Source of the DNA: a virus
Taxonomy: Duplodnaviria; Heunggongvirae; Uroviricota; Caudoviricetes
Reading direction: 5' to 3' (one strand)
DNA length: 22,241 bases
IMG/VR virus record: IMGVR_UViG_3300044620_000288
Coordinates: 64,001-86,241 of that record
In this document: piece by piece, positions 3,001-22,241 of the stretch
Layout of the letters: each line of letters starts with the position of its first letter
Position numbering within the stretch: the first letter of the stretch is position 1
Translations under genes and position numbers: made by a program
Notes under the pieces: generated by a model
The model's database searches: none
What the model was told of the DNA's origin: nothing
The model's input: only the letters and a program-made list of their open reading frames with translations

Positions 3001-6000
3001 AACCAAGAATCAATCAACCAAGATGTTGCTGGTTTCTTAGAAGGTATTACAGACACTACATTTAACACTCTTAAAGACAATGATCAAATTGTTCCTATTC
3101 AGGAAGGTTGGACATGGGATAGTCTGGACAATACATTTGCTCGTAAGAACAATATTAATAAAACCAAACCTATCATAGAAGACGTTCTGAAGCAAGTGTT
3201 GCTATTCAGAACTGTTAACTATACAATCAATAACATTGAATATCACAAGATAATATTCGGTGACCCACTTCAGTTCTCTACAGAGAAGGGTAAGTTTGAT
3301 GAGACCAAGCGTATCAAGAGCTTCCTATCTCCACGTAGAACAACATTTGATGTTGCTGAATTTGATAACTTCTTAAATGACAATCTGAATGAGGTGGCTG
3401 GTATTGCACTTCAACCTCCTAAAGATGACAGACCTGCTGACCCTGGTTACCATAACCACAAAGCTTACACAAGAACTGTAACATTTGCAGATCCTAAAAT
3501 AGCTGGTGCATTAGCAAACATCATTCCTGCGTATGCAGACATTAAAGAAGCTGATGCTGCCTCTTGGTTAATGGATACAACATTCAGAGAGATTAAGAAT
3601 AAGAACGGTCAATGGACTGATGAGGCTGAAGATTTCCACCAATGGCAAATGGCTAACACAAGAAAGAAGCTGGCTGCTAAAGGTGAATACACATATGCTA
3701 GCTCTGAGCTAAAAGCGTATGATGAAAAGCTCACATCTACACCTTCTCCTAAATACACATTAGAGATATTGAAACCTATTGTGTCTGGTGTTAAATACAA
3801 CTCAAACAACATCAACCTGGTGCTAGACAAGTTCTCTCAGATGCCTATCTACTACAGTATGGTGGAAGGAACTACTCTAGAGAAGTTATATATACAGATG
3901 TGGAAACAAGGATATGGTTATGCAATTGTAGAATCAGGAAGAAAGGTGGGAGCTGAAGGCTTACATTCTATCTACAATCCTAATGGTACATTTAATGAGG
4001 AAGCATTTAACAACTTTGTTGATGTTCCTTGGAAAGCATACGGTATCCAGGTGGAGAATATATATGATGAGGGTAAAGAACAAACTCGTGGTTCTCAGTC
4101 TACCAAGTTGATTAGCATTGACTTATTTGCTAACGGTGAGGTGTTTGGAGCTACAGGTGCACGTGCTGAATACATTAAGAATCTATACAAGAAGAATGTT
4201 AAAGACCTAGACAGAATGCATGCCAATGCTTATAATAACCTACTTAAAAAGCTTGGTGTTGTAGACAATGGTCAAGGATTTACTCTTGAAGATAAACAAG
4301 CGTTGTCTGAAGTGTTAGTGTATGAGATGTTCCGTAGAGAGCTCTCTGAGAATGCTAAAGACACTGTTAGACTTAATGAGGAAGATGAGTTCAGAATTCC
4401 TTTTGAGGCATCTCCATCTTATGTACAAATCAGAAACATCATCTACTCAATGGTTGAGAAAGCTATTCTCTCTCCTAAGATGGGTGGTAAGCCATTAGTT
4501 CAGGCTCCTGTAACCATGTGGGAGAATGCTGAGAAAGGCAGAAGTCTGGTTCAAAAGACTAAAGATGGATGGAAGAAGATATCTAGAGAAGAGTATGAGG
4601 CACTAGAGGATAGTGAGAAGAAGAAGGTGCGCATGACTAGTGACACACTCAAGTTCTATACAAAAGATAAGCCATATATGGAAGTGATGCTTCCACATTG
4701 GTTTAAAGATAAGCTTGCTGCTAAGAAGTTTAAAACTGACCAGGAAATACTTGATTACATCAATAAAAGTCCTGACGGTGCTAAGATTCTTAGAGGTATT
4801 GGTTTCCGTATTCCTACACAGTCTTTGTCTTCAATAGACTCATTTAAGGTGGTAGGGTTCCTACCTCAATATATGGGAGATACTGTTATAGTTCCTACAG
4901 AACTAGTTACCAAGTCAGGATCTGACTTTGACATAGATAAACTCAATACCTATTTAAGAAACGTATATGTAGATGCTACAGGCAACCTTAGACTTGTTAA
5001 ATACAATGGTTCTGAAGAAGCTACAAAACAATTCTTTACAAAGGTGTATGAAGACACCATCCAAACTGAGATTGACAGAATAGATAAGTTTGAAGACTTC
5101 AGAGACAGAATGTTCTCTGTGTTGATAGATGTTGAGGACTTAACAGACTTCTCTTCAGAATCTGTAAACGCAGCAATAGATGAGCAAGATGTTGACTTCT
5201 TCTATGATAACTTAAACCTATTCAAAGAAATTATAAAGCAAGCTGCTGATGCAAATCTTCCTGCTAGTGAATACATTGCACAACAGGTTGAGAAGCTGGC
5301 AGATAAGAAAACCAAACTCACTAAGAAGATCTTTAACGAGAAGCTTAAGAATGAGTTTGTAGAAGATATGTATAAGCGCTCCCTCGAGAATGAATACTAT
5401 GATTCTTTTGAAGAGTTGCTTACACTTCCTGAGAACTTCAATCGTCTCATCAGCCCTGTGGGTGATGGTGGCTTGAAAGAAATTGCTACAGAGATTGAAG
5501 ACCTATTAGGTGAGAAAGAGGTTGATGTTAAGAACAAGATCATCAACCCTAACTACATGACCACTTTGAGACACGCCTTCATAACTGCTAAGGCATGGGT
5601 GGGTATTGGTGCTGTAAACATTACCAACCACTCTCTATCTCAGAAGGTTACAGTGATTATGGATCCTGAGAAGATAAAGAACTCTCCTGCATTTGACCAG
5701 AAGTTCTTAGGTGACGGTGGTATTCTACTACCTCACAACAAGGTGACTGTTAACGGTAAGGAGTACATATCTATGTCTGGTGTACTAGATGCAGATGGTA
5801 AACTTTACATCTCTGATGGTTTGTCTGGATATATTACATCATTTGTGGATGTGGCTAAAGATCCATACATCATGAAGGTGATTAGAAGTACAAAGGCTGT
5901 TGGTACATTTATGGTGATGCAAAGAATGGGTGTTCCTATTCGTACAGCAGCTCTGTTCATGAACCAACCTATCATCAGAAAATACTTAGAACTTGTAGAA

Positions 6001-8294: not shown

Positions 8295-11200
8295 ATGGCG
8301 TGTAAAGTTAAATATGTAGAACAAGAGTATAGGAAGAACTATCCTGAACTGGCTGATAAACTTAATCAGAAGTATACAGACATTTGGAAGGATATTACCG
8401 ACTCTAATCTATTTAGAAAGTATGGTGATGGTCCAACGGCTACTTATTTGCTTTCCAAAGCTGGCACTGAACAGCAACAGAAGCAGGTTAACTTTATTGC
8501 CAAACTGAATGAGAAGTATGAAACTCCTCAGGGCAAGTCAATTATACAAGGTGCTCCTACAAAGGCTGGGAACAATACAAAGATATTAGTGAATGTCCAT
8601 CCTCTGGCACAAGGAGAGTGGAGCAAGCTACAAAAACCTGAACAGGGAACATTGTTCCAATTGCGTGGTGGTACCATGGGATCTAATGCATCTCCTAAGA
8701 CCATTGCAATGATTAAGGACTTCCTTACACGCATTGGTGTTAGCACTAAGAATGTTAATGGTATTGTAGTGAATGGTGTTCAGATGAATGCAAACGCTGC
8801 AGCCATTGTAACACAGAAGCTTATTCAGGTGGTGAATGGCATGGAAGCTAGAGCTCTTCCTGAGGAAGCTATGCACTTTGCTGTAGAAATCATCAAGCAA
8901 ACTAATCCCAAGCTTTACCAAAAACTACTTAACGAAATCAATAGCTACCAAATACTAAGAGATACATTTGCTGAGTATAGCAACAATCCTCTTTATCAAA
9001 CAGAAGATGGTAGACCTGATGTATTGAAAATCAAAGATGAGGCTATTGCCAAGGTGCTTTCTGAAACAATCATCTATCAAGGTGAGAACAATAAAGAAAG
9101 TATGGAGAAACTTGCTAAGGTGCAGACCTGGTGGGGACAAATGTTGGAATGGCTCAAAGGTCTGTTCTCTAGAAGTGGATTTGATCAAGCAGCTATGGAC
9201 ATCATCTCTGGAAAAGAAATTGGTACAGCTGATGACATCCGTGCTAATGAGAATGAGATATTCTTACAGCAGTCTAAACAAGAACAGATATTTAATACCA
9301 TTAAGTCTGGCTCTATGGCTGTTGAAAAGCGTGGAGATGGTTACTATGTAAATGGTAAGAAAGTTCCTAAACGTGTAACAGATCTTGTTAATGACTGGTA
9401 TGAGCGTAGGTTTAGAGAGAAGAAACTAACAGACAGTGAGTTCCAGAAGGCTATTGACTCAATGAAAGCTGACAAGGGTACAGCTGGACATATTGATTTG
9501 GAGGAAGCATTTAAAGTGTATGTAGATCCTCAGACAGGACTAATGAGACCTGAGCCTTTAAATGATGATGCTTACGTATCTCAGCTTAACAAAGATGACC
9601 GTAAATATTACATCACTCTAAGAGATAATCTTAAGAAGCGTTTGGACTCATTTGGTCCTAATGCAAGATTCCTTGCTGAAGCTATAGTGTATGATGCTAA
9701 GAGACCGGGGGGTGGTATTGCTGGTACAATTGACTTCATAGCTATTACAGAAGATGGTAAAGTGAACATGCTTGACTGGAAGTTTACCAACCTCAATACA
9801 AATAAGTATGATGATATTCCTTGGTATAAAGTGAACGCATGGCGTACACAGATGAACCAGTACAAGTTAATCCTCAAGACAGCATATGGTATTAAGGAAG
9901 ATCAGTTTGATCAAACCAGAATGATTCCTATACAGGCTATCTACACAGAGGCTGATTATAAAAAAGAAATCTTACCACGCCTATCTGGTATTAAAATAGG
10001 AGATGTAGATATAAAGAACATCGAGGAAGACTATTTACTTCCTGTTGGTCTAGAGGAAGAAGTTACAGGAGAAGAAGAACTAGATGACTTGTTGGCTAAG
10101 CTCAACCGCATCTACAAAAGAATGTCTGAGAAAAAGGCAACACCTGGTGAAAAACTTACTAAGGCTGAACAACTTAACTCTTTGTACACAGCTATTCGTC
10201 ACCTTCAGATGAGAAGAGATGCTAAGTCTCTTGTATACCAAGCTCGTCTTATCAACAAACAAATTGAGGACATATTCACAAAGTTTGAAGATAAGTTTAA
10301 AGGTAAAGATCCATTAAGCTTTACAGAGAAAGAGCGTAGTGATTTTACAAAAGAAATGGCAGATGGACTAGAAGCACTAGAAACATATGCTGATTTGGCT
10401 ACAGATCTTGACTTCTTGTTCAGAGGTGAGCTTGATAAAGCTACAGAAGATGTTAAGAGTGAAATATACAAAGCTAGTTCTGCAGCTAAACTATTGAGAT
10501 CTAGATTGTTGAAACTGGACAAGTCTTTCACTAATGACTTCATTGCCCTATCTGAAAAAGTGAAAGGAGCTAAAGAAGGAGAGAAAACTGTTACAGGTGC
10601 AACTAAGTGGTTTAGTAGTACAGCCACCTTGCAGATTAAAGCTGCACAGGTGTTATTCAGAAAAGCTAACCGTGCCTTCACTTATGCAGGTATGGACACA
10701 GCTGCAGAAAGTAGAAGACTTGCTGAGATAAAAACCAAATATGATGCTTGGGCTAAAGGAAAAGGTCTAACATCCAATAACTACTTTGACATCATTAGAA
10801 AGAAAGCTGATTCATATCAGAAGGAAGCAGATGCTCGTAAGAAAGCTGAGATGGAAGAGCTAAACAAAATGAAGCCTGAAATCTCTGAGGAATCATACAA
10901 GCAAGAAGTTGAGAAGATTAATCAGCGTTATGAGAATGCTATCAAGGATAAGAACCAATTGATTGATGAGTTTGATCCTCAGTTCTATTCAAAACTCAAC
11001 TCTGCTATAGCCCAGAAGGACTATGCATGGATTAGAGATAATATAGATAAAGCTGAATATGCTGAGCACTTACGTAAGAAACTAGATGAAGAAGAGCAAC
11101 GCATATTTGATAAACCTCGTATTGGTACAGAGGAAGACATTGCTAATCAGATCAAGACAGAACTGAGAAAAGCAAAAGAACTATACAACATTACTACAGA

Positions 11201-13409
11201 CCAATCTATAGGATGGTTACTGTATGATGAGATAAAGCAGTTTCCAAATAAGGAAACTTGGGAGTCTAAGGAATGGAAAGAACTTACAAAGAAGGATGCT
11301 TCTGGTAAATTCATTAACCAACCAGCTATTGACTTCTATAATTATATCCGTGAGAGAAACGAACTATACAGAGACCTTGGCTACATTAATGCTAAGCAGT
11401 CTAGGGTGTTCCTACCTTGGGTGAGAAAAGGACTTACAGAAAAGCTTGTGCTTGGTGGTAATGTCACTGTTGGTGAACAGTTCCTCAGGACAATATCTAT
11501 TGATGAGGGAGATGTGGGATATGGACAACGTGATGCTATTAGTGGTAAACTAATAGACAAGGTGCCTATCTATTTCACTAGAGAGTTAGAAGGAGATGTT
11601 AGTACAGACCTTTTTAGAACAATGTCTTTATACAATGAGTTTGCTCTCAGGTATAAATACCTAAGTGATATTGAGGACCAGGTGCTAGCATTAAATAGAC
11701 TTGAGAGAAACAAGAGATCTATTGCTACATCATTCTGGGGAAAGACAGAATATAAAGATGGAGAACTCCAATACAACCCTGACAATAGTGAGAATGCTAA
11801 GATTATAGAAGACATGACCAAGGCTATTGTGTATCAGCAGAAGTTTATTCAGAGCGATACATTTGATATGGTGCTTGGAAAGATTGGTACCGTAGGAGAA
11901 AGTATAAATAAAAAGCTTGGATTCAAGCTTATACCTGAAGGACTTGCTGGAAGACAAATCAGTATAAATAAGAGTATTGATGCTCTGAATACCACCTTCC
12001 AATTACAGGCTTTAGGACTGAATGTATTATCATCCATGTCCAACTTGTTTGGTGGTACAACACAATCCTTGATTAATTCAGGTAGATATTTCACTAAGGG
12101 AGACTTTGTGAAAGCTGAGGGTAAGCTCCTATGGAATAAACTTGGAGGAGAAGATGCTAAGAAATTTATAGCAGCTAAGAACTTCTTCATGCCTTTCACA
12201 GAAAACTACAACAGAGATTTGGCTAAGAACCTGTCTATGAGTAGAGTGAGTCAGGAGAGCATTCAAGACTTCCTCATGGTACTCATGAGAAACTCTGACC
12301 GTGCTGTACAAGCTGTTAACTTTTATGCCTTCCTTGAGAATAGTATAGTGGTTGATGGTCAAGTTGTTAATGTTAGAGAATACCTCAGACAACAACCTGA
12401 GTACATTGGTAAGATGTATGATGGAACCAGAGAGGAAAGAAAATCTAGATCTGACAAGTTTGAACAAGATGTACAGAAGCTTATTGAGGAAAAGGGTGTA
12501 ATGAAACTTGGTAAGATTGAGGGAGATGAATTTGTAATCCCTGGCGTAGACCAGAAGTCTGAAAGTGTTGTTGAGTTCAGAAGGAAGGTGCAACAAGTTA
12601 CAGCTGATGCTCTTGGTAACATGTCAGAAGCTAACAAACGTCTCATCAACCTAAATGTGTATAGCAATTCATTCATGGTGTTCAAAAACTGGATCCCTCG
12701 TCTGATTGATGTACGTTTTGGTAATCTTAAATACAACTCTGCCTCAGACGCTTATGAATGGGGTAGAATGAGAATGCTGTTTAGATTTGTAGCTACAGAT
12801 ACCATTAAGTCTTTAAACAGTTTAAAGAGTTCTCTCCTAGGAAATGATGACCAGTTTATTCAACAGGTGCGTAATCTGTATGAAAAAAAGAAAGCTGACT
12901 ATGAGAAGGACACTGGTAAAGAGCTAGAAATGACTGAGGATGAATTCATTGACTTGGTTAGAAGGAACATAAAGAACCAGCTTTTAGACGTTCTCATTTT
13001 CATTGCTCTATTGGGTATCTACTTTGGACTCAAGGCAAACATGCCTGATGATGACGAAGACCCAGCTGTAAGAAACAGATGGAAGTTCATGCTCAAGGCT
13101 ACAGACAAGTTCTCAGATGAGATTGCCTACTTCTACAACCCTACCAACATATCTAAGTTGGTGTCTACAGGTATATTCCCATCCTTAGGACTGATAGAAA
13201 ACTATAAGAAAACCCTGACTAACTTTGGAAAGGAGATGTTTGGATTGGCAATAGGAGATGAGGAATTGGTAGAAGAGAACCAGGTTATCAAGTATTTGAT
13301 GAAGTCTTTTCCTATCACTAGCCAAGGAGCAGCCCTTCTTCCTATGTTCTCTCCTGAGACAGCTAAAGACCTAGGAATCAAGATGCCTTCTCAGTCAGGA
13401 ATTAGATAA
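8295..13409 (+). CDS. Giant virion cargo/ejection-like protein (1704 aa): degenerate zincin-like domain, PD-(D/E)XK nuclease, long helical region, C-terminal hydrophobic helix
   Basis: ATG lies 5 nt after the RNAP stop. Motifs: ALPEEAMHFAVE (8862-8876), KGTAGH, IAGTIDFIAITEDGKVNMLDWK, QMNQY, LLDVLIFIALLGIYFGL. Its position next to the RNAP matches crAss-like cargo gene clusters. The CDS is certain; the ejection role is inferred. Confidence 0.8.
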   Translation: MACKVKYVEQEYRKNYPELADKLNQKYTDIWKDITDSNLFRKYGDGPTATYLLSKAGTEQQQKQVNFIAKLNEKYETPQGKSIIQGAPTKAGNNTKILVNVHPLAQGEWSKLQKPEQGTLFQLRGGTMGSNASPKTIAMIKDFLTRIGVSTKNVNGIVVNGVQMNANAAAIVTQKLIQVVNGMEARALPEEAMHFAVEIIKQTNPKLYQKLLNEINSYQILRDTFAEYSNNPLYQTEDGRPDVLKIKDEAIAKVLSETIIYQGENNKESMEKLAKVQTWWGQMLEWLKGLFSRSGFDQAAMDIISGKEIGTADDIRANENEIFLQQSKQEQIFNTIKSGSMAVEKRGDGYYVNGKKVPKRVTDLVNDWYERRFREKKLTDSEFQKAIDSMKADKGTAGHIDLEEAFKVYVDPQTGLMRPEPLNDDAYVSQLNKDDRKYYITLRDNLKKRLDSFGPNARFLAEAIVYDAKRPGGGIAGTIDFIAITEDGKVNMLDWKFTNLNTNKYDDIPWYKVNAWRTQMNQYKLILKTAYGIKEDQFDQTRMIPIQAIYTEADYKKEILPRLSGIKIGDVDIKNIEEDYLLPVGLEEEVTGEEELDDLLAKLNRIYKRMSEKKATPGEKLTKAEQLNSLYTAIRHLQMRRDAKSLVYQARLINKQIEDIFTKFEDKFKGKDPLSFTEKERSDFTKEMADGLEALETYADLATDLDFLFRGELDKATEDVKSEIYKASSAAKLLRSRLLKLDKSFTNDFIALSEKVKGAKEGEKTVTGATKWFSSTATLQIKAAQVLFRKANRAFTYAGMDTAAESRRLAEIKTKYDAWAKGKGLTSNNYFDIIRKKADSYQKEADARKKAEMEELNKMKPEISEESYKQEVEKINQRYENAIKDKNQLIDEFDPQFYSKLNSAIAQKDYAWIRDNIDKAEYAEHLRKKLDEEEQRIFDKPRIGTEEDIANQIKTELRKAKELYNITTDQSIGWLLYDEIKQFPNKETWESKEWKELTKKDASGKFINQPAIDFYNYIRERNELYRDLGYINAKQSRVFLPWVRKGLTEKLVLGGNVTVGEQFLRTISIDEGDVGYGQRDAISGKLIDKVPIYFTRELEGDVSTDLFRTMSLYNEFALRYKYLSDIEDQVLALNRLERNKRSIATSFWGKTEYKDGELQYNPDNSENAKIIEDMTKAIVYQQKFIQSDTFDMVLGKIGTVGESINKKLGFKLIPEGLAGRQISINKSIDALNTTFQLQALGLNVLSSMSNLFGGTTQSLINSGRYFTKGDFVKAEGKLLWNKLGGEDAKKFIAAKNFFMPFTENYNRDLAKNLSMSRVSQESIQDFLMVLMRNSDRAVQAVNFYAFLENSIVVDGQVVNVREYLRQQPEYIGKMYDGTREERKSRSDKFEQDVQKLIEEKGVMKLGKIEGDEFVIPGVDQKSESVVEFRRKVQQVTADALGNMSEANKRLINLNVYSNSFMVFKNWIPRLIDVRFGNLKYNSASDAYEWGRMRMLFRFVATDTIKSLNSLKSSLLGNDDQFIQQVRNLYEKKKADYEKDTGKELEMTEDEFIDLVRRNIKNQLLDVLIFIALLGIYFGLKANMPDDDEDPAVRNRWKFMLKATDKFSDEIAYFYNPTNISKLVSTGIFPSLGLIENYKKTLTNFGKEMFGLAIGDEELVEENQVIKYLMKSFPITSQGAALLPMFSPETAKDLGIKMPSQSGIR
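9340..10060 (+). other. PD-(D/E)XK (RecB/AddB/Cas4-like) nuclease domain; boundaries approximate
   Basis: GT..H motif (9477-9491), E..V, GTID (D at 9732), DWK (9774-9782) and the RecB-family QxxxY motif (9849-9863). Confidence 0.82.
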
Positions 13410-13889: not shown

Positions 13890-16800
13890 ATGAACGTACT
13901 TCCTAACATACTACAGTATGGAAGTAGTGGCACATCTGGTACTTCAGGTGTGTCACAGGCTTCTGACTGCGTAGATAATTTACCAGTTTATATAAATCCA
14001 GTAGTGGCTTCCGTAGAGCCACCACCTAGTGAATTATCATCTAGTCAGCCCTCCTTTTTGTCTAGACTATATGGTAGGGCTCCTGTTCAGGAGACTCCTC
14101 CTATTATTATTAGTGAGCCACTCATCTATGTGGCTCCTGCTCCAATCGATCCAAACAATAATCAAAGCTTTTTATCTAAGCTCCTTGGTGGAGACTGTAG
14201 AAATACGTCTTTCACAAACAGCCCTGTCATATGTTCTGCTGATGCCTGTCCTATTATATTAGACGCCACTTGTGTGTTCTATGAAGGATACAATCTCATC
14301 TATACAGGGATTAGTGCTAATGACAACCTTCAGACAGCTCTTGAGAAGATAGAGGAAACCTTTGCCAATAGTTTGGCAGGAAGCTCTGGTACGTCTGGCA
14401 CCTCAGGTAGTTCAGGTACATCTGGCAGTTCTGGGACTGCTGGAACAACAGGTACTTCAGGTACAACTGGTACAAGCGGAACCTCAGGAACCACAGGTAC
14501 AAGTGGAAGTTCTGGGACTAGTGGCACTACTGGGACCAGTGGTACAACGGGTACATCAGGTACAACTGGCACTAGCGGTACGTCAGGTACTAGCGCTACA
14601 TCTGGTACATCAGGCACTGCAGGAACTAGTGGCACCTCAGGTACTACGGGTACAAGTGGTACATCAGCTACTGATGGTACAGGAGGTACGAGTGGTACGT
14701 CTGGTACAGATGGAACTTCTGGCTCAAGTGGAAGTTCTGGTACATCGGGCACTTCAGGAACCACTGGAACAAGTGGTACAACTGGCACCTCAGGAACGAG
14801 TGGTACTGCTGGCTCTTCAGGTACTAGCGGTACAACAGGAACGAGTGGTAGTTCAGGTAGTACAGGAACATCAGGGACATCTGGCACTACAGGTACTAGT
14901 GGTACGTCTGGCTCTAGTGCTACAGACGGAACAGGGGGTACATCAGGTACTTCAGGTACGTCAGCAACTAGCGGATCAAGTGGGACAACAGGAACCTCAG
15001 GAAGCTCAGGTACTGCAGGTACTTCTGCAACTAGTGGAAGTTCAGGCACTTCTGGAACATCAGGTACTGACGGAACAGGAGGATCAAGTGGTACTTCTGG
15101 CACTTCTTCTACCTCAGGAACATCAGGAAGTTCTGGAACTGATGGATCAGAAGGAACATCTGGTACAAGTGGTACGAGTGCCACAAGTGGTACTTCTGGA
15201 TCTACAGGGACCTCTGGAACGAGCGGTAGCACAGGAACATCAGGTAGTAGCGGTACAAGTGGCACCTCTGCAACAGATGGCACTGGTGGTACATCAGGAA
15301 CAAGTGCAACGAGCGGAACCAGTGGAACCAGTGCTACATCAGGTACGTCTGGTACAGCAGGGACAACAGGTACATCTGGATCTTCAGGTTTGAGTGGTGA
15401 TAGATTTGCCACAACATCAACATCAACATATACATTAGGAGCTGTAGGTTCTTCAGGAACTATTACAGTGGGAACAGGACTAGCATACACTGTGGCCCAA
15501 TCTATCATTATTGCCTACGATGCTAATAATCACGTAGAAGCTGAGGTGACTTCATACAACCCATCGACTGGCTCATTGAGCTTTACTGTATTTAGACTTA
15601 CAGGGTCTGGTACATACAGTCTTTTCCAAGTGAATCTAGATGGTGCAACAGGTGGTGATGGTTCTAGTGGATCATCAGGCACTAGTGGTACGTCCGCAAC
15701 AGCTGGTACCTCTGGTACAACAGGTACATCGGGTTCAAGTGGCACGTCTGCCACATCAGGAAGTTCAGGTACCACTGGCACAAGTGGAACAGGTGGAACT
15801 TCTGGAACCAGCGGCACTACAGGCACATCTGGCTCAAGCGGAAGTAGTGGATCTTCAGGAAGTAGTGGCTCTAGTGGAACCTCTGCCACCTCTGGTACAA
15901 GTGGAACATCTGGAACAAACGGTAGTGGAGGCACTAGTGGAACAAGTGGGTCATCTGGTAGCTCAGGATCGTCTGGTACAGCTGGTACAGCAGGTAGTCC
16001 TGGTACGTCTGGAACTAGTGGTAGTTCTGGAACAGGAGGATCGTCTGGTACATCAGCAACCTCTGGAACATCAGGTTCAAGCGGAACCTCAGGTAGTAGT
16101 GGTACTACGGGAACTTCTGGTACCACGGGAACGTCTGGTACTAGTGGTACCTCAGGAGCAACTCAAGCTTTCTCTAATGTTCTAACTATGAACAGTGGTG
16201 GAGCTGGAGATGCTTCAGGAACAACATATAATGGTTCTGCTTCTAGAACTCTTTCTTATAATACAATAGGTGCTGCAGCTTCTGCTAATTTTAAAGTATT
16301 AGGAGCAAATGTTAATTATGATGTAAATAGATCAATAAAAACATCAGGTGGGGGTCTTGCTATATATTCAGGATATTCTACAGGTACTAACAGACCAACT
16401 ACATATGATATTTCTGCTCAATTTGCTGCAACAAATGATATAGCTTTTGAGATAGCTGCCGATTGGTTAAGCGGTTCAGGACCTACACTTTATGCTAGAT
16501 CTCTTCGTGACTGTTGTCAGGATTGGTCGTCTTGGGTAACTATTCTTACTTCTTTAAATTACAATTCCTATTCACCAACGTTAACAGGTGGTGGAGCTTC
16601 AGGAACATGGGGCATCAATATTACAGGTAACGCTGAAACTGTAGATGGATTTAGTGCATCTCAGTCTACTATTGCAAATGGAATTGTAGTAAGAGACCCT
16701 AGCGGATATATCTTTGGTAGCTATATCAACATGACTGATGACGGTAATCCGGGAGGAGGTACATCAATCACTTCATTTATTACTAAGCAAGGAGATAATT

Positions 16801-19553
16801 ACTACCGTTCAGTATCTCCAACTAACGCAATGGTCTCTATAAGAGGAGTTGCTAGTGGAACTTGGGGAATTAATATTTCTGGTAATGCTGCTACTTCAGA
16901 TAGAGTAAATGAGGTAAGTGAAACTAATTTGAACACTGCATTTACTAACACACCAGCAGGTCAATTATCGTGGACTGAGAATTACAACCAGACAAATGCA
17001 CCAACACCAAATACATATTACAATACTATCTCTATGAGGCATAGTAATCCTAGTAATGTATATGGGAATCAGTTAGCAATTCGTTGGGTAGATTCTGAGC
17101 CAAATACCTATGTTAGAGTTGTAAATAATGGGTCTTTTGGTCCGTGGAGAACAATTTTAGCTGATTTTAATTATAATTCTTATGCTCCAACATTAACAGG
17201 CGGTGGAGCATCAGGTACTTGGGGAATTAATATTACAGGAACAGCAGGATCCGAAACTTTAAATACCGTAACAAGTAGAGGAGCTACTACATCAAATGCT
17301 GTTACAGTAGGATTATTAATAGCTCAAGGTCCCGGAGGGAACTACAATGAAAATGTTAGACTTCCGGGTTCAACTGCTGTAATATCATTTAATACAAGTG
17401 GAGCTACCGGTGCAGGTAGCTATAATATAGTTTCTCAAACTAACTTTCAAATAAGAAATGCTGTTGGTACTCAAGTGTTTGTAATGGACCAATCAGGTAA
17501 TCTTACTATGACAGGGAACATTAGTGGTAATTATATTTTGGGAACATATTTTAATGCTTCTTTAGGTAACTCTGAGAATCCTACTATTGGTCAAATATGG
17601 ACACAAAATACGACTGATAACTATTTAAGAAAATCAACGCCTGCTCATTTTAGAAGTCAAATAACAGATGGAGTGTATGTGTACACGAGAGGTCAATCAA
17701 ACTGGAATGATAGCACTGTTATTAATAATGTTGTAGGTTTATTAGCATGGAAAAACTATGGCAATGCACACGTTATATTTGATGCTTCTCAAGGAACTTC
17801 TCCAAGTGGTGGTGGTGTAAGTCAAACTAATGCTACAAATGCTTGGAGTGCTTCTTACCCAACATTAATGGGATGGAATGGTAGTCAAACATATGGAGTA
17901 AGAGTAGATAGTGCTAGAGTAGCTGATAGTGCTACACTTGCACCTGCATATTTACCATTAGCAGGTGGTACATTAACAGGACCTCTCACGATAGGTACTA
18001 CTGTGAATTCAGTGATTTGGAATGACGGTACTGGCACCTACATGGAAAATACGGGTAATAGTGCAGCAACCAGAGTTATTAGATTACAGGCTCATAATGG
18101 AAGCTTTAGTTACACTCAACTATTTGTTAATGGTGGTGGTGGATATGTAGAAGTTAATAACCAAATGCGTGCTCCAATCTACTATGACTCTCAAGATACA
18201 ACATATTATCTAGACCCTAATAGTACAGGACTTTCTCTTTCAAGTAATGGTATAGTTTCTTCAGGGGTAGGAACTTCTGGAGGATTTCAAAACAGGGTAT
18301 ATACATCAGGAAGAAATAGAATTTGGAGTTTTGGTAATGCTGATGGCTACGGTATAAGCTATTTTCAAGGTGGTCCAGATTATATTGGTTTGCACGTTTC
18401 TGGCAGTCCTACGCAAGCTGGTTCAGATTTTTGGGTAAGTTCTACTGGTATTGCTCAAGCATCAGGAAGTATGAGGGCTCCTATATTCTATGATTCTAAT
18501 GATACCTCTTACTATGTAGATCCTAATAGTGAATCTAATCTATATAGATTTACAGCAGCGTCTATGACAAGAAATGCTATTAACTATCTTAGTATTAATT
18601 CACCTTTCACTACAAGAGCAGCTCAAACAAGACCATATCAAAACGGAACAATGGGCTGGGGAACTGTTGATTTTAATGCTGTGTTTTCTAACTGGGGCTC
18701 AGGTTTTATTGATACTTGGAGTAATCCAGCAAATGCTCCCGGAGGTTCAAGTCACTATGTTGGATTTAATGCAATGCATTATAATTTTGAAAATAATTCT
18801 CAAGGATATGGATTCCAAATGGCTTGTGCTGGAGAAGCAGCAAATAGATATTTTTGGAGAAATGGATGGCCTAATTTAAATGGTTGGGTGGAAATGTACC
18901 ATACTGGTAACTTTAATCCGGGAAGCTATTTACCACTATCTGGGGGTACTATGACTGGTGCTATCACAACACCTACGGGAACTTCAATGTATATTGGCGG
19001 ACAAAATGTTACCACAAGTGCTAGACTTATTATTAACTGGCATACAGACTCAGATTATAATTATCTAATAGGTAAAAGAGCAGGATCATGGACTCAACCT
19101 ATGGATATTTCTTTCTATACAGGTTTAAGATATCATGCACACCAAGCATATAATGGTCATATATTTTACGTTACTGGTTATGATGGTACAGAAGCTTTTT
19201 CTATAGGAAAAGGTGATGCTAATGTAAGAGTTGTTAACAATATTTATGCTTCTTCTTTTTTTGAAACTTCAGACAAAAGACTTAAAGAACTTGTTCAAGA
19301 CAATTACTCTGTAGAGGGTATTCATCTTGTTAAGCCAAAACTTTATATTAAAAATGGTAAAGAAGAAGTAGGATATTATGCTCAAGATTTTCAAGAGATT
19401 CTTCCTGTTGCTATTGCTACAGAGTTGAATGGATATTTAAACCTTTCATACACTCAGGTTCACACAGTTAAGATTGCGCATCTTGAAGATTCTGTTGAAG
19501 AAATAAAAGCAAAAATTTTATATTTAGAAAATCAATTAAAACAAAAACAATGA
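13890..19553 (+). CDS. Long fibre / receptor-binding protein (1887 aa): Cys docking domain, Gly-X-Y Ser/Thr collagen-like stalk, several knob-like modules, C-terminal peptidase S74 intramolecular chaperone
   Basis: G-X-Y blocks at 14379-15404 and 15642-16163. Repeated GTWGINI(T/S)G, RAPI(Y/F)YDS.D..YY.DPNS and YLPL.GGT.TG linkers. Knob-type ends WSSWVTIL, FGPWRTIL and NGWVEMYHTGNFNP. SDKRLK is followed by a terminal coiled coil. Confidence 0.88.
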   Translation: MNVLPNILQYGSSGTSGTSGVSQASDCVDNLPVYINPVVASVEPPPSELSSSQPSFLSRLYGRAPVQETPPIIISEPLIYVAPAPIDPNNNQSFLSKLLGGDCRNTSFTNSPVICSADACPIILDATCVFYEGYNLIYTGISANDNLQTALEKIEETFANSLAGSSGTSGTSGSSGTSGSSGTAGTTGTSGTTGTSGTSGTTGTSGSSGTSGTTGTSGTTGTSGTTGTSGTSGTSATSGTSGTAGTSGTSGTTGTSGTSATDGTGGTSGTSGTDGTSGSSGSSGTSGTSGTTGTSGTTGTSGTSGTAGSSGTSGTTGTSGSSGSTGTSGTSGTTGTSGTSGSSATDGTGGTSGTSGTSATSGSSGTTGTSGSSGTAGTSATSGSSGTSGTSGTDGTGGSSGTSGTSSTSGTSGSSGTDGSEGTSGTSGTSATSGTSGSTGTSGTSGSTGTSGSSGTSGTSATDGTGGTSGTSATSGTSGTSATSGTSGTAGTTGTSGSSGLSGDRFATTSTSTYTLGAVGSSGTITVGTGLAYTVAQSIIIAYDANNHVEAEVTSYNPSTGSLSFTVFRLTGSGTYSLFQVNLDGATGGDGSSGSSGTSGTSATAGTSGTTGTSGSSGTSATSGSSGTTGTSGTGGTSGTSGTTGTSGSSGSSGSSGSSGSSGTSATSGTSGTSGTNGSGGTSGTSGSSGSSGSSGTAGTAGSPGTSGTSGSSGTGGSSGTSATSGTSGSSGTSGSSGTTGTSGTTGTSGTSGTSGATQAFSNVLTMNSGGAGDASGTTYNGSASRTLSYNTIGAAASANFKVLGANVNYDVNRSIKTSGGGLAIYSGYSTGTNRPTTYDISAQFAATNDIAFEIAADWLSGSGPTLYARSLRDCCQDWSSWVTILTSLNYNSYSPTLTGGGASGTWGINITGNAETVDGFSASQSTIANGIVVRDPSGYIFGSYINMTDDGNPGGGTSITSFITKQGDNYYRSVSPTNAMVSIRGVASGTWGINISGNAATSDRVNEVSETNLNTAFTNTPAGQLSWTENYNQTNAPTPNTYYNTISMRHSNPSNVYGNQLAIRWVDSEPNTYVRVVNNGSFGPWRTILADFNYNSYAPTLTGGGASGTWGINITGTAGSETLNTVTSRGATTSNAVTVGLLIAQGPGGNYNENVRLPGSTAVISFNTSGATGAGSYNIVSQTNFQIRNAVGTQVFVMDQSGNLTMTGNISGNYILGTYFNASLGNSENPTIGQIWTQNTTDNYLRKSTPAHFRSQITDGVYVYTRGQSNWNDSTVINNVVGLLAWKNYGNAHVIFDASQGTSPSGGGVSQTNATNAWSASYPTLMGWNGSQTYGVRVDSARVADSATLAPAYLPLAGGTLTGPLTIGTTVNSVIWNDGTGTYMENTGNSAATRVIRLQAHNGSFSYTQLFVNGGGGYVEVNNQMRAPIYYDSQDTTYYLDPNSTGLSLSSNGIVSSGVGTSGGFQNRVYTSGRNRIWSFGNADGYGISYFQGGPDYIGLHVSGSPTQAGSDFWVSSTGIAQASGSMRAPIFYDSNDTSYYVDPNSESNLYRFTAASMTRNAINYLSINSPFTTRAAQTRPYQNGTMGWGTVDFNAVFSNWGSGFIDTWSNPANAPGGSSHYVGFNAMHYNFENNSQGYGFQMACAGEAANRYFWRNGWPNLNGWVEMYHTGNFNPGSYLPLSGGTMTGAITTPTGTSMYIGGQNVTTSARLIINWHTDSDYNYLIGKRAGSWTQPMDISFYTGLRYHAHQAYNGHIFYVTGYDGTEAFSIGKGDANVRVVNNIYASSFFETSDKRLKELVQDNYSVEGIHLVKPKLYIKNGKEEVGYYAQDFQEILPVAIATELNGYLNLSYTQVHTVKIAHLEDSVEEIKAKILYLENQLKQKQ
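14379..15404 (+). repeat. Collagen-like triplet block 1 (114 in-register triplets, mainly GTS/GSS/GTT/GTA)
   Basis: Register is unbroken from Gly 14379 to Gly 15396 (1017 nt = 113 x 9). Occasional Ala or Ser sits at the Gly position. Codons are synonymously varied. Confidence 0.9.
15405..15641 (+). other. Small beta-rich globular domain interrupting the collagen-like stalk
   Basis: About 79 aa of non-repetitive sequence (TITVGTGLAYTVAQSIIIAYD...VTSYNPSTGSL...GSGTYSLFQVNLD) between the two triplet blocks. Confidence 0.7.
15642..16163 (+). repeat. Collagen-like triplet block 2 (58 triplets)
   Basis: Runs GAT-GGD-GSS...GTS-GAT and contains the single Pro of the two blocks (GSP). Confidence 0.9.
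16533..17246 (+). repeat. Dispersed direct repeats in the fibre: W.TIL...NYNSY.PTLTGGGASGTWGINITG.A at 16533-16634 and 17145-17246, with a partial copy at 16851-16889
   Basis: The two full copies are nearly identical at protein level, 612 bp apart, and clearly similar at DNA level. Confidence 0.85.
18165..18530 (+). repeat. Direct repeat MRAPI(Y/F)YDS.DT.YY.DPNS at 18165-18224 and 18471-18530
   Basis: Two 20-aa copies 306 bp apart. Confidence 0.85.
19269..19553 (+). other. Peptidase S74 intramolecular chaperone (autocleavage) domain
   Basis: S-D-x-R-x-K (Ser 19269, Lys 19284), G..AQD...ILP, L.LSY and a terminal heptad coiled coil. Confidence 0.88.
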
Positions 19554-19933
19554 AAACAATTCAACCAGTAACAGTATGGTATGGTGGACAAGAAGTTCAA
19601 GCAACCATTCTTGGTGCAATAGCACAAAATGACAACCTTGTAAACTCTGCTACTTTTCAGTATCAATTACTGCAAGAGGTTTCTCAACCGGGCAGCATAT
19701 ATGCGTACACTCAGCCTGTGGTTACAAACTATTTAACTATGACAGGAGAGGCATACGATAATTGGGGAGATAACGACTATGCGTATGATTGGATTGCTGA
19801 GCAACTTAATCTTACCATTACAGGACCTTATGTTCCTCCTACTCCTATTCCTCCTGTACCAAGTACTACTAGTACAACAACAGAAGCTCCTTCAACAACC
19901 ACCACATCTACAACCACTGTGTCTAGTAAGTAA
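19550..19933 (+). CDS. Fibre-associated small protein (127 aa) with Pro-rich linker and Thr/Ser-rich C-terminal tail
   Basis: ATGA 4-bp overlap with the fibre stop suggests translational coupling. C-terminus is PPTPIPPVPSTTSTTTEAPSTTTTSTTTVSSK. Function unknown. Confidence 0.75.
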   Translation: MKTIQPVTVWYGGQEVQATILGAIAQNDNLVNSATFQYQLLQEVSQPGSIYAYTQPVVTNYLTMTGEAYDNWGDNDYAYDWIAEQLNLTITGPYVPPTPIPPVPSTTSTTTEAPSTTTTSTTTVSSK

Positions 19934-19935
19934 CT

Positions 19936-20691
19936 ATGTCTTGGGCAAGCTTAGCAAGTAATCAGACTGTATCGTTTAACAACCTACAGAACGCTGTAAC
20001 AAATGGTTATTTTGTTGCCCTTACAGGTATTCCTGCAACTCAAGAACAAATTACTAAGTCAGATGCTTCCACATATGTTAATGTTGATACAGGGTATGCT
20101 CCCTTTGCAGGTAAGGCAAGTAACCAGCTTGTTGTAAAAAGCAATCTGAGGCCTGTAAGTTATGCCTACACCATCTATTACGAGGAAGCTTGTTACTATG
20201 ATGGATTTTATATTGAGGGAGGTGCTGCAACTGCTGACATAGCGTGTGGTAACACTCTCACCATAACACTATACAGCCCTGTTTCATCATTTGCAAATGG
20301 AATGAAGCTGTTTTATGATTCAGCTTGTTCTAATTTTTGGTATGGAGATACAGGTGGCTGTGGTCAGTATTACAAGGTGATAGTTGCAGGAACATCATAT
20401 TCATTCACTTATGCAAACTCAAGCTCTACAGTGGGTAGTTTGACTGCTTGTCCAACTCCAACATGTCAACAGATCTATCTATATCCTTTTAACGAGTATC
20501 CATGTGACCACTACTACAGCTATACATTATTTGATACTGATAATGCTCTAGCTCCTACGAGATTATGGCTTGCTTATGAATGTAATGTAACTCCTGTAGT
20601 AGGGCAACTTAAATGGTATTCTCAGGGACCGGGTGGATTTAGTTATCAGGTGAATAATGCTGGATTTATTGTAGATACAGTGTCATGTTAA
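19936..20691 (+). CDS. Cys/Tyr-rich probable virion surface protein (251 aa)
   Basis: ATG is 2 nt after the previous stop. The N-terminal segment is bracketed by ASNQTVSFNNL / ASNQLVVKSNL. Two beta-rich, Cys-ending domains are joined by a PTPT linker; 9 Cys in total. Confidence 0.72.
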   Translation: MSWASLASNQTVSFNNLQNAVTNGYFVALTGIPATQEQITKSDASTYVNVDTGYAPFAGKASNQLVVKSNLRPVSYAYTIYYEEACYYDGFYIEGGAATADIACGNTLTITLYSPVSSFANGMKLFYDSACSNFWYGDTGGCGQYYKVIVAGTSYSFTYANSSSTVGSLTACPTPTCQQIYLYPFNEYPCDHYYSYTLFDTDNALAPTRLWLAYECNVTPVVGQLKWYSQGPGGFSYQVNNAGFIVDTVSC

Positions 20692-20721
20692 AAAATATTT
20701 TTTTAATTGAATAAACTTAAC

Positions 20722-20729
20722 TATATTTG
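20722..20729 (+). promoter_or_regulatory. Bacteroidota-type -7 promoter element TATATTTG
   Basis: Matches TAnnTTTG in an AT-rich intergenic gap 21 nt before ATG 20751. The upstream TTG (20707-20709) is 12 nt away, not the canonical 19. Confidence 0.55.
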
Positions 20730-20750
20730 TAATTCTTAAACCCACAAAGT

Positions 20751-21158
20751 ATGAACTTAAAGCTACATGAGGTGATTAACCTCTTTTATGAACTAAACGG
20801 TGTTACCAAACAAGATGGAGAAATGGTAAGCCAAGGTCTTTTGAAACAGAAAATGTCCCTCAAAGTGAAGGTGTACCTACAGCGTTTGAACAATGCTATA
20901 GGTGAAGACATTAAAATCTATGAGGAAGCTAGAAAGGAGCTGTTTAAAAAATATGGTGAAGAGGGAGAGGGTGGAAACATCAGCATTTCTAATGACAACA
21001 TTGCTGCTTTTAACAAAGATCATGTTGATCTTCTAGAAGCAGACAAAGCTATCGATGTTGCTACATTATGGGGAGCTGATTTAACATTAGATAGCTTCTC
21101 TAACATTGAGACTGAAGAGTTCTATCCATTGGTGTTCAAACTTGTAGACGGAAAGTAA
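20751..21158 (+). CDS. Small helical acidic phage protein (135 aa), possibly DUF1617-like
   Basis: Clean ATG-TAA ORF. K..L.RL.......YEEARKELFKKYGE..E.G resembles small phage proteins often found after fibre genes. The family call is tentative. Confidence 0.7.
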   Translation: MNLKLHEVINLFYELNGVTKQDGEMVSQGLLKQKMSLKVKVYLQRLNNAIGEDIKIYEEARKELFKKYGEEGEGGNISISNDNIAAFNKDHVDLLEADKAIDVATLWGADLTLDSFSNIETEEFYPLVFKLVDGK

Positions 21159-21171
21159 TATATACACGTTC

Positions 21172-22241
21172 TTATAAAAGGGCTAGCAGTGGTACCACCA
21201 CGTCGCTAGCCTTTATTTTTTTGTGGCATTCCCATTGTCTGTCTGTGCCCTTATGCTCAGGACACCAGTCCCAATCTCCTGCATCAAATCTGTATTCAGC
21301 TTTGTTCCAGCATCCATGACATACATTTGTATTAGTGATTCTGATACAGCTAAACTCATGATCTGCATCTGTGAAGTTGGATATCATTACCACCTTCTTA
21401 TCCATAGCCCACGCTAACCAGCTGAGTCCACTGGACAATCCAATGAATAGGTGACTGTGATGGATTACATTCATAGTGTTCTCCATGGATGTGTCTTCTA
21501 TCTGTATACAGTTGTCAAAAGGATTCTTCTCCTTAGACACATTGATCACCTGATATCCTTTCTCATGTATATAGTTTATCACAAGTTGCCATTCTTCCTT
21601 CTGCCAGAACTTACAGCCAGCTGTAGAGTTGGTGGCTATCGTAACATATTTACCATATAAATTGTTACCAGGAGTGAATGCAATTCTAGGTTTAAGTTCT
21701 TGATAATCAAGACCTAAGATGTTGGTAGCTGCCTCTTGAAGCTTTACAGTGTTACACAAAGCTGGTTCCTTGTCTGGATTGTAAAACCAACCAATGCTGT
21801 ACATCCCAAGGATGCCCTCAGCCTTCTGACCAGGATTGATAAACTCAAGCTCTGGATAGACATCCTCAAAGAGGAAGTTCTTAAACGTGCTCACTATTAC
21901 ATGGCAATTGTGCTTCTTCTTAAACTCTAGCACATAAGGCATCCATGCTATTGTATCTCCTAATGACTTACTGTCAAACGCTATGTATACACGCTTACCT
22001 GCGTAGTCTAGAGTGTATTCATAATAGGGCTCATCATCTTTCCATATCTTAATGGTCCACTTAGTGTACCACCTCCTATTTAGCTTAATCCAATTCTGCG
22101 CACCTATTGTATTTCTGTAATGACACACACCTTCCTCATCGATGTATTCCACTCTAAACTTACTCTTAGACCTTCCCTTGATTTCAAGGAACGGTTCTAA
22201 CACAAAGTTGTGATCAATTGTCACATGTTCGTTAGATTGTA
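21172..22241 (-). CDS. TibC/AAH-like (autotransporter O-heptosyltransferase family, GT-B/GT9-related) glycosyltransferase; probably 5'-partial
   Basis: Motifs: RVYIAFDSKSLGDTIAW (Asp at 21955-21957), STAGCKFW, FIGLSSGLSWLAWA..KKVVMISNFT...EF, and CHGCWN...WCP...ECHK with Cys spacing 3/16/12. The frame stays open upstream of the GTG at 22224 to the window edge (..QSNEHVTIDH..), so the real start probably lies outside the window. Confidence 0.82.
   Translation of the reverse strand, partial: QSNEHVTIDHNFVLEPFLEIKGRSKSKFRVEYIDEEGVCHYRNTIGAQNWIKLNRRWYTKWTIKIWKDDEPYYEYTLDYAGKRVYIAFDSKSLGDTIAWMPYVLEFKKKHNCHVIVSTFKNFLFEDVYPELEFINPGQKAEGILGMYSIGWFYNPDKEPALCNTVKLQEAATNILGLDYQELKPRIAFTPGNNLYGKYVTIATNSTAGCKFWQKEEWQLVINYIHEKGYQVINVSKEKNPFDNCIQIEDTSMENTMNVIHHSHLFIGLSSGLSWLAWAMDKKVVMISNFTDADHEFSCIRITNTNVCHGCWNKAEYRFDAGDWDWCPEHKGTDRQWECHKKIKASDVVVPLLALL
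21178..21222 (+). terminator. Intrinsic terminator for plus-strand transcripts, possibly bidirectional; overlaps the 3' end of the minus-strand glycosyltransferase CDS
   Basis: Stem aagggctagc (21178-21187) pairs with gctagccttt (21205-21214), including one G-U. Inner stem gtggt/accac with an acc loop. T-rich tract tttattttttt at 21212-21222. Confidence 0.7.

Follow-up and report, generated by a model that had tools for sequence, protein, structure and literature searches.

The window analyzed here is the final 22.2 kb of an 86,241-bp viral contig (IMG/VR record IMGVR_UViG_3300044620_000288, positions 64,001 to 86,241, 22,241 nucleotides), which has a CheckV completeness of 75%, with about 25% of the genome missing. 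It carries a tail-fibre gene with long collagen-like repeats of the Gly-Thr-Ser (GTS) type and, 1.6 kb past this gene on the opposite strand, a domain of the TibC/Aah family (BAHT) of O-glycosyltransferases. Comparison with related genomes, unrelated phages, and bacteria leads us to conclude that this phage probably glycosylates its GTS collagen-like fibres through a multidomain TibC-like enzyme.

The fibre contains 172 in-frame Gly-X-Y triplets in 2 blocks of 114 and 58, which is exactly the number that a first-pass annotation of the window had given as approximate. Position 1 of the triplet is occupied by Gly in 158 cases, by Ala in 13, and by Ser in 1 (n = 172). Ser or Thr is present at X in 167/172 triplets (97%) and at Y in 146/172 (85%), or 91% of the X and Y positions combined, and the most frequent triplets are GTS (80), GSS (32), and GTT (18). 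The Pro-rich X and Y positions typical of collagens (PF01391) are absent, Pro being found at 1 of 344 positions; the first block contains no Pro at all and has 10 in-frame Gly-to-Ala/Ser interruptions. The Pfam Collagen model matched the fibre with an E value of 2.4e-48, Gly recurs at every third residue over long stretches, and PHROGs assign the 1887-amino acid (aa) protein to tail-fibre families. Codon use in the repeat is varied, indicating a repeat at the protein level. We rejected a plain tandem repeat of the DNA and an artefact of the reading frame, given this variation and the fact that Gly-X-Y appears in one frame and strand only. A segment at residues ~108-160, 44-71% identical, opens the positional fibre orthologue of relatives with and without the enzyme, and a 79-aa insert is 58-68% identical between the GTS blocks of fibres at 14 other enzyme-bearing loci. 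The genome encodes a second GTS fibre of 1542 aa outside the window (positions 34161-38789 of the genome; Collagen E value of 6e-55). The trimer chaperone Peptidase_S74 was detected in this second fibre (E value of 4e-19, 69 bits), while the match in the window fibre (18.3 bits) stays below the cut-off of 22. We propose that the 2 fibres of the phage would be trimeric or triple-helical.

The enzyme is encoded by a minus-strand open reading frame (ORF; 21172-22239, 355 aa) that is open at the contig end and convergent with the fibre operon. It matched TIGR04414 (hepto_Aah_TibC, autotransporter strand-loop-strand O-heptosyltransferase) with 267.4 bits, for a cut-off of 200, over profile positions 26-368 of 374, which bears out the TibC/AAH-like enzyme that had been reported within about 5 kb of the repeats. 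The E value against the TibC structure 4rap was 9e-47. An AlphaFold2 model of the domain (predicted local distance difference test score of 89) was aligned by Foldseek to 4rap/4rb4 with template modelling (TM) scores of 0.86-0.89 (0.88 to 4rap), N-terminal beta-barrel included, and the next-best match was the lipopolysaccharide (LPS) heptosyltransferase WaaC with a TM score of 0.4-0.5. The model shows the N-terminal beta-barrel, the GT-B catalytic domain, and the iron-finger insertion of a BAHT protomer. In TibC, Asp110 is the catalytic base, Thr226 and Lys230 contact the beta-phosphate, Trp305 contacts the sugar O4, Cys339/342/358/370 coordinate Fe, and Arg286 hydrogen-bonds adenine N1, which accounts for the ADP specificity (PMC4358343). 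Residues D95, T206, K210, and W274 of the window ORF correspond to Asp110, Thr226, Lys230, and Trp305, and this ligand set is invariant across 45 phage homologues, except for a Thr-to-Ser change in 3 of them. C307, C310, C326, and C338 match the iron-finger Cys with identical spacing and are also invariant in the 45 homologues; the four-Cys iron finger is preserved, as a putative iron site. The earlier statement that the enzyme motifs are intact thus applies to the catalytic Asp, Thr226, Lys230, Trp305, and the 4 Cys, but not to Arg286, which is replaced by Thr. The position of Pro300, involved in the stereoselectivity of TibC, is Ser or Gly in the phage enzymes. Judged by profile, fold, and residues, the domain is a true BAHT (TibC/Aah) family member, of the protein-glycosylating branch.

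In 15 of the 16 nearest homologues (66-89% identical) approximately 790-820 more in-frame residues lie upstream, and in nearly all relatives the TibC-like domain ends a methyltransferase-GT4-TibC protein of 1000-1600 aa. Because the homologues extend upstream and the contig ends here, what the window contains is just the final module of a multidomain glycosylation enzyme, truncated at the contig end, and not the stand-alone TibC that the first-pass annotation had assumed. The upstream part at locus L009 (88% identical) consists of an S-adenosylmethionine methyltransferase, an unassigned region, and a glycosyltransferase family 4 (GT4) domain, and the extra modules found across homologues are polysaccharide pyruvyl transferase, GT25, GT32, FkbM methyltransferase, PIG-L deacetylase, and DUF6165. 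The domain content of the fusions differs widely among phages: the 1463-aa enzyme of G050 (L177:13863-18251) has an additional polysaccharide pyruvyl-transferase domain, and an FkbM methyltransferase is encoded separately after it. In G061 (C1:94332-100027), G069, and G074 the TibC-like gene is stand-alone (369 aa). It is the first of a series in which separate GT4 genes (338 and 885 aa) and a second, weakly GT9-like gene (315 aa) follow, as would be expected of a fusion protein split into an operon.

To detect GTS fibres, we used a DNA pattern of 3 consecutive Gly-Thr-Ser codons plus Gly with at most 2 mismatches, for which the reversed control was near zero. The Pfam Collagen model was rejected as a marker because it is too broad and also catches the short GPQ/GIQ collagens of enzyme-less genomes. 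The pattern was present in 39/49 whole enzyme-bearing records, the other 10 being fragments 8-40 kb long. All enzyme-bearing records of at least 42 kb contained GTS repeats, including 8/8 that are at least 90% complete. We then compared 2 samples of close relatives, chosen by a terminase identity of at least 83%, and considered the records with a completeness of at least 90%. Both the enzyme and the GTS pattern (105-458 hits) were found in G050, G059, G061, G118, G119, G123, G124, and G125, and neither of them in G053, G054, G056, G058, G060, G121, and G122. With the members of the enzyme-first set included, the lineage total at this completeness was 15 records with both, 7 with neither, and 0 discordant, so that the co-occurrence check proposed in the first-pass annotation turned out strongly positive. 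In the terminase tree the enzyme and GTS states are interleaved, with approximately 4 joint changes on the best tree. Even genomes whose terminases are at least 83% identical differ in both traits jointly.

The fibre slot itself was informative. In the whole genome comparison no collagen-like ORF was found in the enzyme-less G053, G056, and G060, in which the slot 3' of the 1704-aa gene holds a protein with the same N-terminal ~350 aa and no collagen stalk; in the enzyme-bearing G008 and G061 that same ~350-aa N-terminus is followed by GTS repeats. The enzyme-less G122 encodes a 327-aa protein with 2 short conventional GPQ/GIQ collagen segments (L453:1025-2008), indicating that the enzyme tracks the Ser/Thr type and not collagen in general. 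As far as genome comparison can tell, this shows that Pro/Gln-type collagen does not need the enzyme, and the distribution as a whole shows that the enzyme and the GTS fibre type have been gained and lost together.

The pairing was also detected beyond this lineage. A Ser/Thr-rich Pro-free collagen ORF was present in the fetched flanks of 34/61 viral enzyme loci, within 1.5 kb in 17 of the 34 and convergent downstream, as in the window, in 32. In the cultured Microcystis phage Mel-JY01 (PP395634.1) a GTS fibre, a structural protein, and a 1227-aa TibC fusion are consecutive. The fibre of this phage (L193:2-3052, plus strand, >1000 aa) runs off the record start and is annotated on the wrong strand in GenBank, as 2 minus-strand 'hypothetical proteins' whose PEVP-type repeats are its reverse reading. 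A 735-kb phage has the enzyme and approximately 2000 GTS pattern hits, and no GTS pattern hits were obtained in the enzyme-less Leptolyngbya phage, the nearest cultured terminase relative. When the search was begun from GTS runs, the enzyme was found on 15/36 viral records, with a very low background. In bacterial genomes enzyme relatives were found by an alignment-based scan, a single-protein scan having found none. On the bacterial contigs a Pro-free GXY-repeat ORF flanks 35/53 enzyme loci, and all but three of these ORFs are at least 64% Ser/Thr. A stand-alone enzyme of 374-441 aa is encoded on genuine chromosomes of Methylobacter, Methylomicrobium, Polaromonas, and Arenicellales, next to a small gene for a protein with a signal peptide or lipobox and 15-39 GTS/GSS triplets (such pairs, in Methylococcales, Burkholderiales, and Arenicellales, include L336, L338, L343, L353, and L359). 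These pairs mirror the layout of TibC-TibA and Aah-AIDA-I, in which enzyme and substrate genes are adjacent, and we regard this as the best indication that the acceptor is the repeat itself.

Two other explanations of the pairing have to be considered at this point. The multidomain enzyme could act on the host (LPS, capsule, another surface glycan, or a small molecule, for receptor masking, superinfection exclusion, or counter-defence) and travel with the fibres as part of the same exchangeable module. GT9, GT4, GT25, pyruvyl-transferase, and deacetylase domains are indeed characteristic of pathways that make LPS and polysaccharides, some homologues have a GT4 domain matching 'GT4 in conflict systems', and enzyme and fibre are frequently near each other. 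We consider a host target quite improbable because the profile scores place the domain in the TibC/Aah branch, which glycosylates proteins (267 bits, while the LPS heptosyltransferase models reach 15-34 bits on the same ORF), because GTS repeats occur in 2 fibre genes 40 kb apart and only with the enzyme present, and because the pairing holds with small secreted GTS proteins in bacterial chromosomes and in unrelated phages. The GTS stalks could also be unglycosylated spacers, flexible or triple-helical, linked to the enzyme by shared ancestry or host range, for instance if both were adaptations to a single group of hosts. Phage fibres often contain collagen-like segments poor in Pro, some phages have GTS runs but lack the enzyme, and a phylogenetic sign test has no power here, all of which would fit such spacers; that the association repeats across unrelated phage lineages and bacteria, and that close genomes (by the terminase threshold above) differ in both traits together, makes this explanation very improbable to us.

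Ser and Thr are also concentrated outside the collagen-like stalks. A Thr-rich tail had been noted on the gene after the fibre, and the protein encoded by 19550-19933 does end in approximately 24 Thr/Ser-rich residues; poly-Thr/Ser tracts are present in several further late proteins of the genome, beyond the window. Among the relatives compared, genomes with the enzyme have 4-10 poly-Ser/Thr tracts and genomes without it 0-2. The main acceptors of the enzyme might therefore be mucin-like poly-Thr/Ser tracts of virion proteins (the 127-aa protein tail, and the tails and linkers of late proteins) and not the stalks, the more so as these tracts are numerous here and in other enzyme-bearing genomes and as mycobacteriophages are reported to glycosylate Ser/Thr-rich C-terminal tails of their capsid and tail-tube proteins (PMC10527164). 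We regard this as unlikely, since tracts also occur in the enzyme-less relatives G056 and G060, the partners of the bacterial enzymes are GTS/GSS repeats and not poly-Thr, and the trait that tracks the enzyme without exception in this lineage is the GTS repeat. Poly-Ser/Thr is thus not tied to the enzyme, and the proposal that other Ser/Thr-rich virion proteins are glycosylated is weak.

Candidate ADP-heptose synthesis genes, which could supply the sugar, were found next to the enzyme in 4 close relatives. In G008 (enzyme 78% identical) sugar-pathway genes lie between the TibC-fusion gene and the GTS fibre (L013:11252-16235, at ~20.6-25.6 kb). They include HldD-like (ADP-glyceromanno-heptose 6-epimerase), HldE-kinase-like (heptose-7-phosphate), HldE-adenylyltransferase-like (heptose-1-phosphate), and HAD-phosphatase-like genes, together with an adenylyl-sulfate-kinase-like gene and a NoeE-like (sulfotransferase-type) gene. 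The matches of these heptose and sulfate genes are below the equivalog cut-offs, yet those models are the best matches. The last 2 genes suggest that the glycan of G008 may be sulfated. Kinase-like genes were also detected within a few kb of the enzyme in 3 further genomes (G001, G009, and G031) and, in G088, on the record that carries the enzyme; the count in enzyme-less genomes was 0/7. Among the 5 enzyme-bearing genomes searched, the studied one included, none contained NTP_transferase, and Cytidylyltransferase-like and epimerase genes were found in G008 only. The genes found in relatives favour a heptose donor despite the change at Arg286 and hint at further decoration of the glycan; we consider heptose, supplied in nucleotide-activated form, the most likely sugar to be transferred.

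Taking these observations together, the window gene would encode the last domain of a large cytoplasmic enzyme, which in relatives has the order methyltransferase, unassigned region, GT4, and TibC-like domain. During infection, the TibC-like domain would add the first O-linked sugar to Ser/Thr of the (Gly-Thr/Ser-Ser/Thr)n stalks of both fibres, and the remaining domains would extend and methylate the glycan. The outcome would be a glycan-sheathed, proline-free collagen-like stalk, and the coat might serve helix stability, hydration and extension, protease resistance, or shielding.

Several observations weigh against this interpretation. The proposal of the first-pass annotation that the phage sugar-coats its fibre has gained the co-occurrence of enzyme and GTS repeats in near-complete relatives, unrelated phages, and bacteria, but all of this support is comparative and no glycan has been seen on any GTS fibre. 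Ser residues within the strand-loop-strand motifs of beta-helices are the known BAHT acceptors, and collagen-like repeats are not among them; we noticed no autotransporter in the annotated ORFs, although no search aimed at autotransporters was made. The position of Arg286 is Thr255 in the window enzyme, and Thr in 37/45 phage homologues and Arg in 4, so that an ADP-heptose donor cannot simply be assumed. No sugar-nucleotide genes were found within the 86 kb of the studied genome, which means that the donor would come from the host or from the missing genome quarter. The thumb region of TibC (~255-282), needed for the dodecamer, is 9 residues shorter in the phage enzyme, so that a dodecamer ring is not assured; the model shows only a 2-residue strand at this position, and the domain sits within a ~1150-aa protein in relatives. 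Only one contrast between the enzyme/GTS states lies on well-supported branches of the terminase tree, which leaves the sign test mentioned above without power, and co-transfer as a cassette could contribute to the association since enzyme and fibre are close in many genomes. In addition, the GTS pattern is nearly absent from a 636-kb phage whose enzyme is 34% identical, and 4/7 near-complete GTS-bearing records of the search begun from GTS runs lack the enzyme, indicating that GTS repeats can exist independently.

The features of the locus are listed in Table 1. The plus-strand run consists of the 131-aa gene, the 1887-aa fibre gene, and small genes of 127, 251, and 135 aa. No match in Pfam or PHROGs was obtained for the 127-, 251-, and 131-aa proteins. 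Copies of the 131-aa gene (47-83% identical) lie 5' of GTS fibres at L015, L017, L023, L025, L032, L034, and L052 and in G050, and the N-terminal 90 aa of the 127-aa protein recur right after fibre genes at L019 and in G061. Each GTS fibre gene of the genome directly precedes a small poly-Thr-tailed gene, the one for the 127-aa protein in the window and one of 120 aa, DUF7936, after the second fibre (38791-39153 of the genome); these genes may encode fibre-associated or assembly proteins. The window begins within a 4475-aa ORF (1-8289), whose PHROG matches are confined to the last ~150 residues (phrog_1017 and phrog_652), followed by a 1704-aa ORF (8295-13409) that had no match in Pfam or PHROGs and whose homologues precede the fibre in relatives.

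Table 1. Features of the fibre and enzyme locus, in window coordinates.
Feature	Position	Strand	Basis or remark
Small conserved gene, 131 aa	13486..13881	+	immediately 5' of fibre gene; no Pfam/PHROG match
Tail-fibre gene, 1887 aa: N-terminal anchor, two GTS collagen-like blocks, distal domains, chaperone-like C-terminal end	13890..19553	+	translation, Pfam Collagen 2.4e-48, PHROG tail-fibre families
Fibre N-terminal part, aa 1-163	13890..14378	+	residues ~108-160 are a conserved attachment module
Collagen-like block 1, 114 Gly-X-Y triplets, aa 164-505, putative acceptor region	14379..15404	+	triplet count
79-aa globular insert separating both collagen-like blocks	15405..15641	+	58-68% identical insert in other fibres
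Collagen-like block 2, 58 Gly-X-Y triplets, aa 585-758	15642..16163	+	Thr/Ser-rich, one Pro
Weak Peptidase_S74 match (intramolecular chaperone of endosialidase-type trimeric fibres)	19269..19409	+	PF13884 E 0.0028, 18.3 bits, cut-off 22
Small gene, 127 aa, overlaps fibre stop codon	19550..19933	+	Thr/Ser-rich tail, last ~24 residues (~19859-19930)
Cys-rich gene, 251 aa	19936..20691	+	first ~71 residues recur shortly 3' of fibre genes in relatives
135-aa gene, phrog_1401	20751..21158	+	PHROG match
TibC/Aah-family (BAHT) O-glycosyltransferase domain	21172..22241	-	TIGR04414 267.4 bits, 4rap E 9e-47, AlphaFold model; 5' part of gene lost at contig end

The phage itself is uncultured and of freshwater type. 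Its terminase is 40% identical to that of the Leptolyngbya phage and just 27-33% identical to those of Cellulophaga and crAss-like phages; judged by this protein, the earlier label of crAss-like phage holds as a distant relation only. The closest enzyme copies in bacterial bins (61-72%) are on short contigs binned with Sediminibacterium, Chitinophaga, and Lutibacter, which is a weak hint at a Bacteroidota host.

In the literature searched, we found no paper linking BAHT enzymes with collagen-like repeats or phage fibres. We put at about even the chances that a TibC/Aah branch with (Gly-Thr/Ser-Ser)n as acceptor constitutes a widespread, undescribed system of phages and bacteria, which would build glycan-sheathed stalks without proline, of a collagen-like or mucin-like kind, on tail fibres and secreted bacterial proteins with fused GT4, methyltransferase, and sometimes pyruvyl-, sulfo-, and deacetylase modules and a phage-borne ADP-heptose pathway. 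If this holds, a viral enzyme would make glycoproteins of the tail fibres in numerous phages of aquatic habitats, crAss relatives, cyanophages, and very large phages among them, with consequences for host recognition, particle stability, and the modelling and expression of fibres. The range of the TibC/Aah family would then grow from the virulence adhesins of proteobacteria to include viruses and an acceptor of a new type, and the stalks would be a natural case of sugar, and not proline or hydroxyproline, supporting a collagen-like helix. The hypothesis is testable now because the cultured phage Mel-JY01 has the same pairing.

The closest known systems are TibC-TibA and Aah-AIDA-I of E. coli (BAHT; TIGR04414; PDB 4rap/4rb4; PMC4358343), with which the phage enzyme shares family, fold, catalytic Asp, Thr/Lys, Trp, and the four-Cys iron finger. 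As in these systems, the gene of a cytoplasmic enzyme adjoins that of a Ser-rich protein with many repeats, which the enzyme would hyper-glycosylate prior to assembly or export, and heptose-pathway genes adjoin the enzyme, here in close relatives of the phage. Unlike in TibC-TibA, the presumed acceptor is no beta-helix autotransporter but the Gly-Thr-Ser collagen-like repeat of a phage fibre, GT4 and methyltransferase modules are fused to the domain, Arg286 is replaced by Thr, the thumb is shorter, and the setting is a virus of a presumptive Bacteroidota host. In mycobacteriophages, glycans attached by phage-encoded glycosyltransferases have been demonstrated on the C-terminal tails of capsid and tail-tube subunits, and this is the demonstrated case of phage virion glycosylation known so far (Freeman et al. 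2023, PMC10527164). There too a phage-encoded enzyme acts on the phage's own Ser/Thr-rich structural proteins in the host cytoplasm, as putatively here by O-glycosylation; the targets differ and the enzymes are of different families, so the likeness is a functional analogy and not membership. Thr-rich Gly-X-Y repeats with O-linked sugars are found in Bacillus anthracis BclA and in the cuticle collagen of Riftia, where sugar on Thr stabilizes a hydroxyproline-poor triple helix. The enzymes of those systems are unrelated and their repeats contain Pro, whereas the phage repeats are essentially Pro-free and Ser-rich. Finally, A064R of Chlorovirus PBCV-1 is a virus-encoded multidomain glycosyltransferase-methyltransferase for capsid glycans. 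It belongs to a eukaryotic virus, serves an N-linked glycan, and has unrelated domains, but like A064R the phage enzyme would be a cytoplasmic viral protein that joins sugar transfer and methylation for the decoration of a structural protein.

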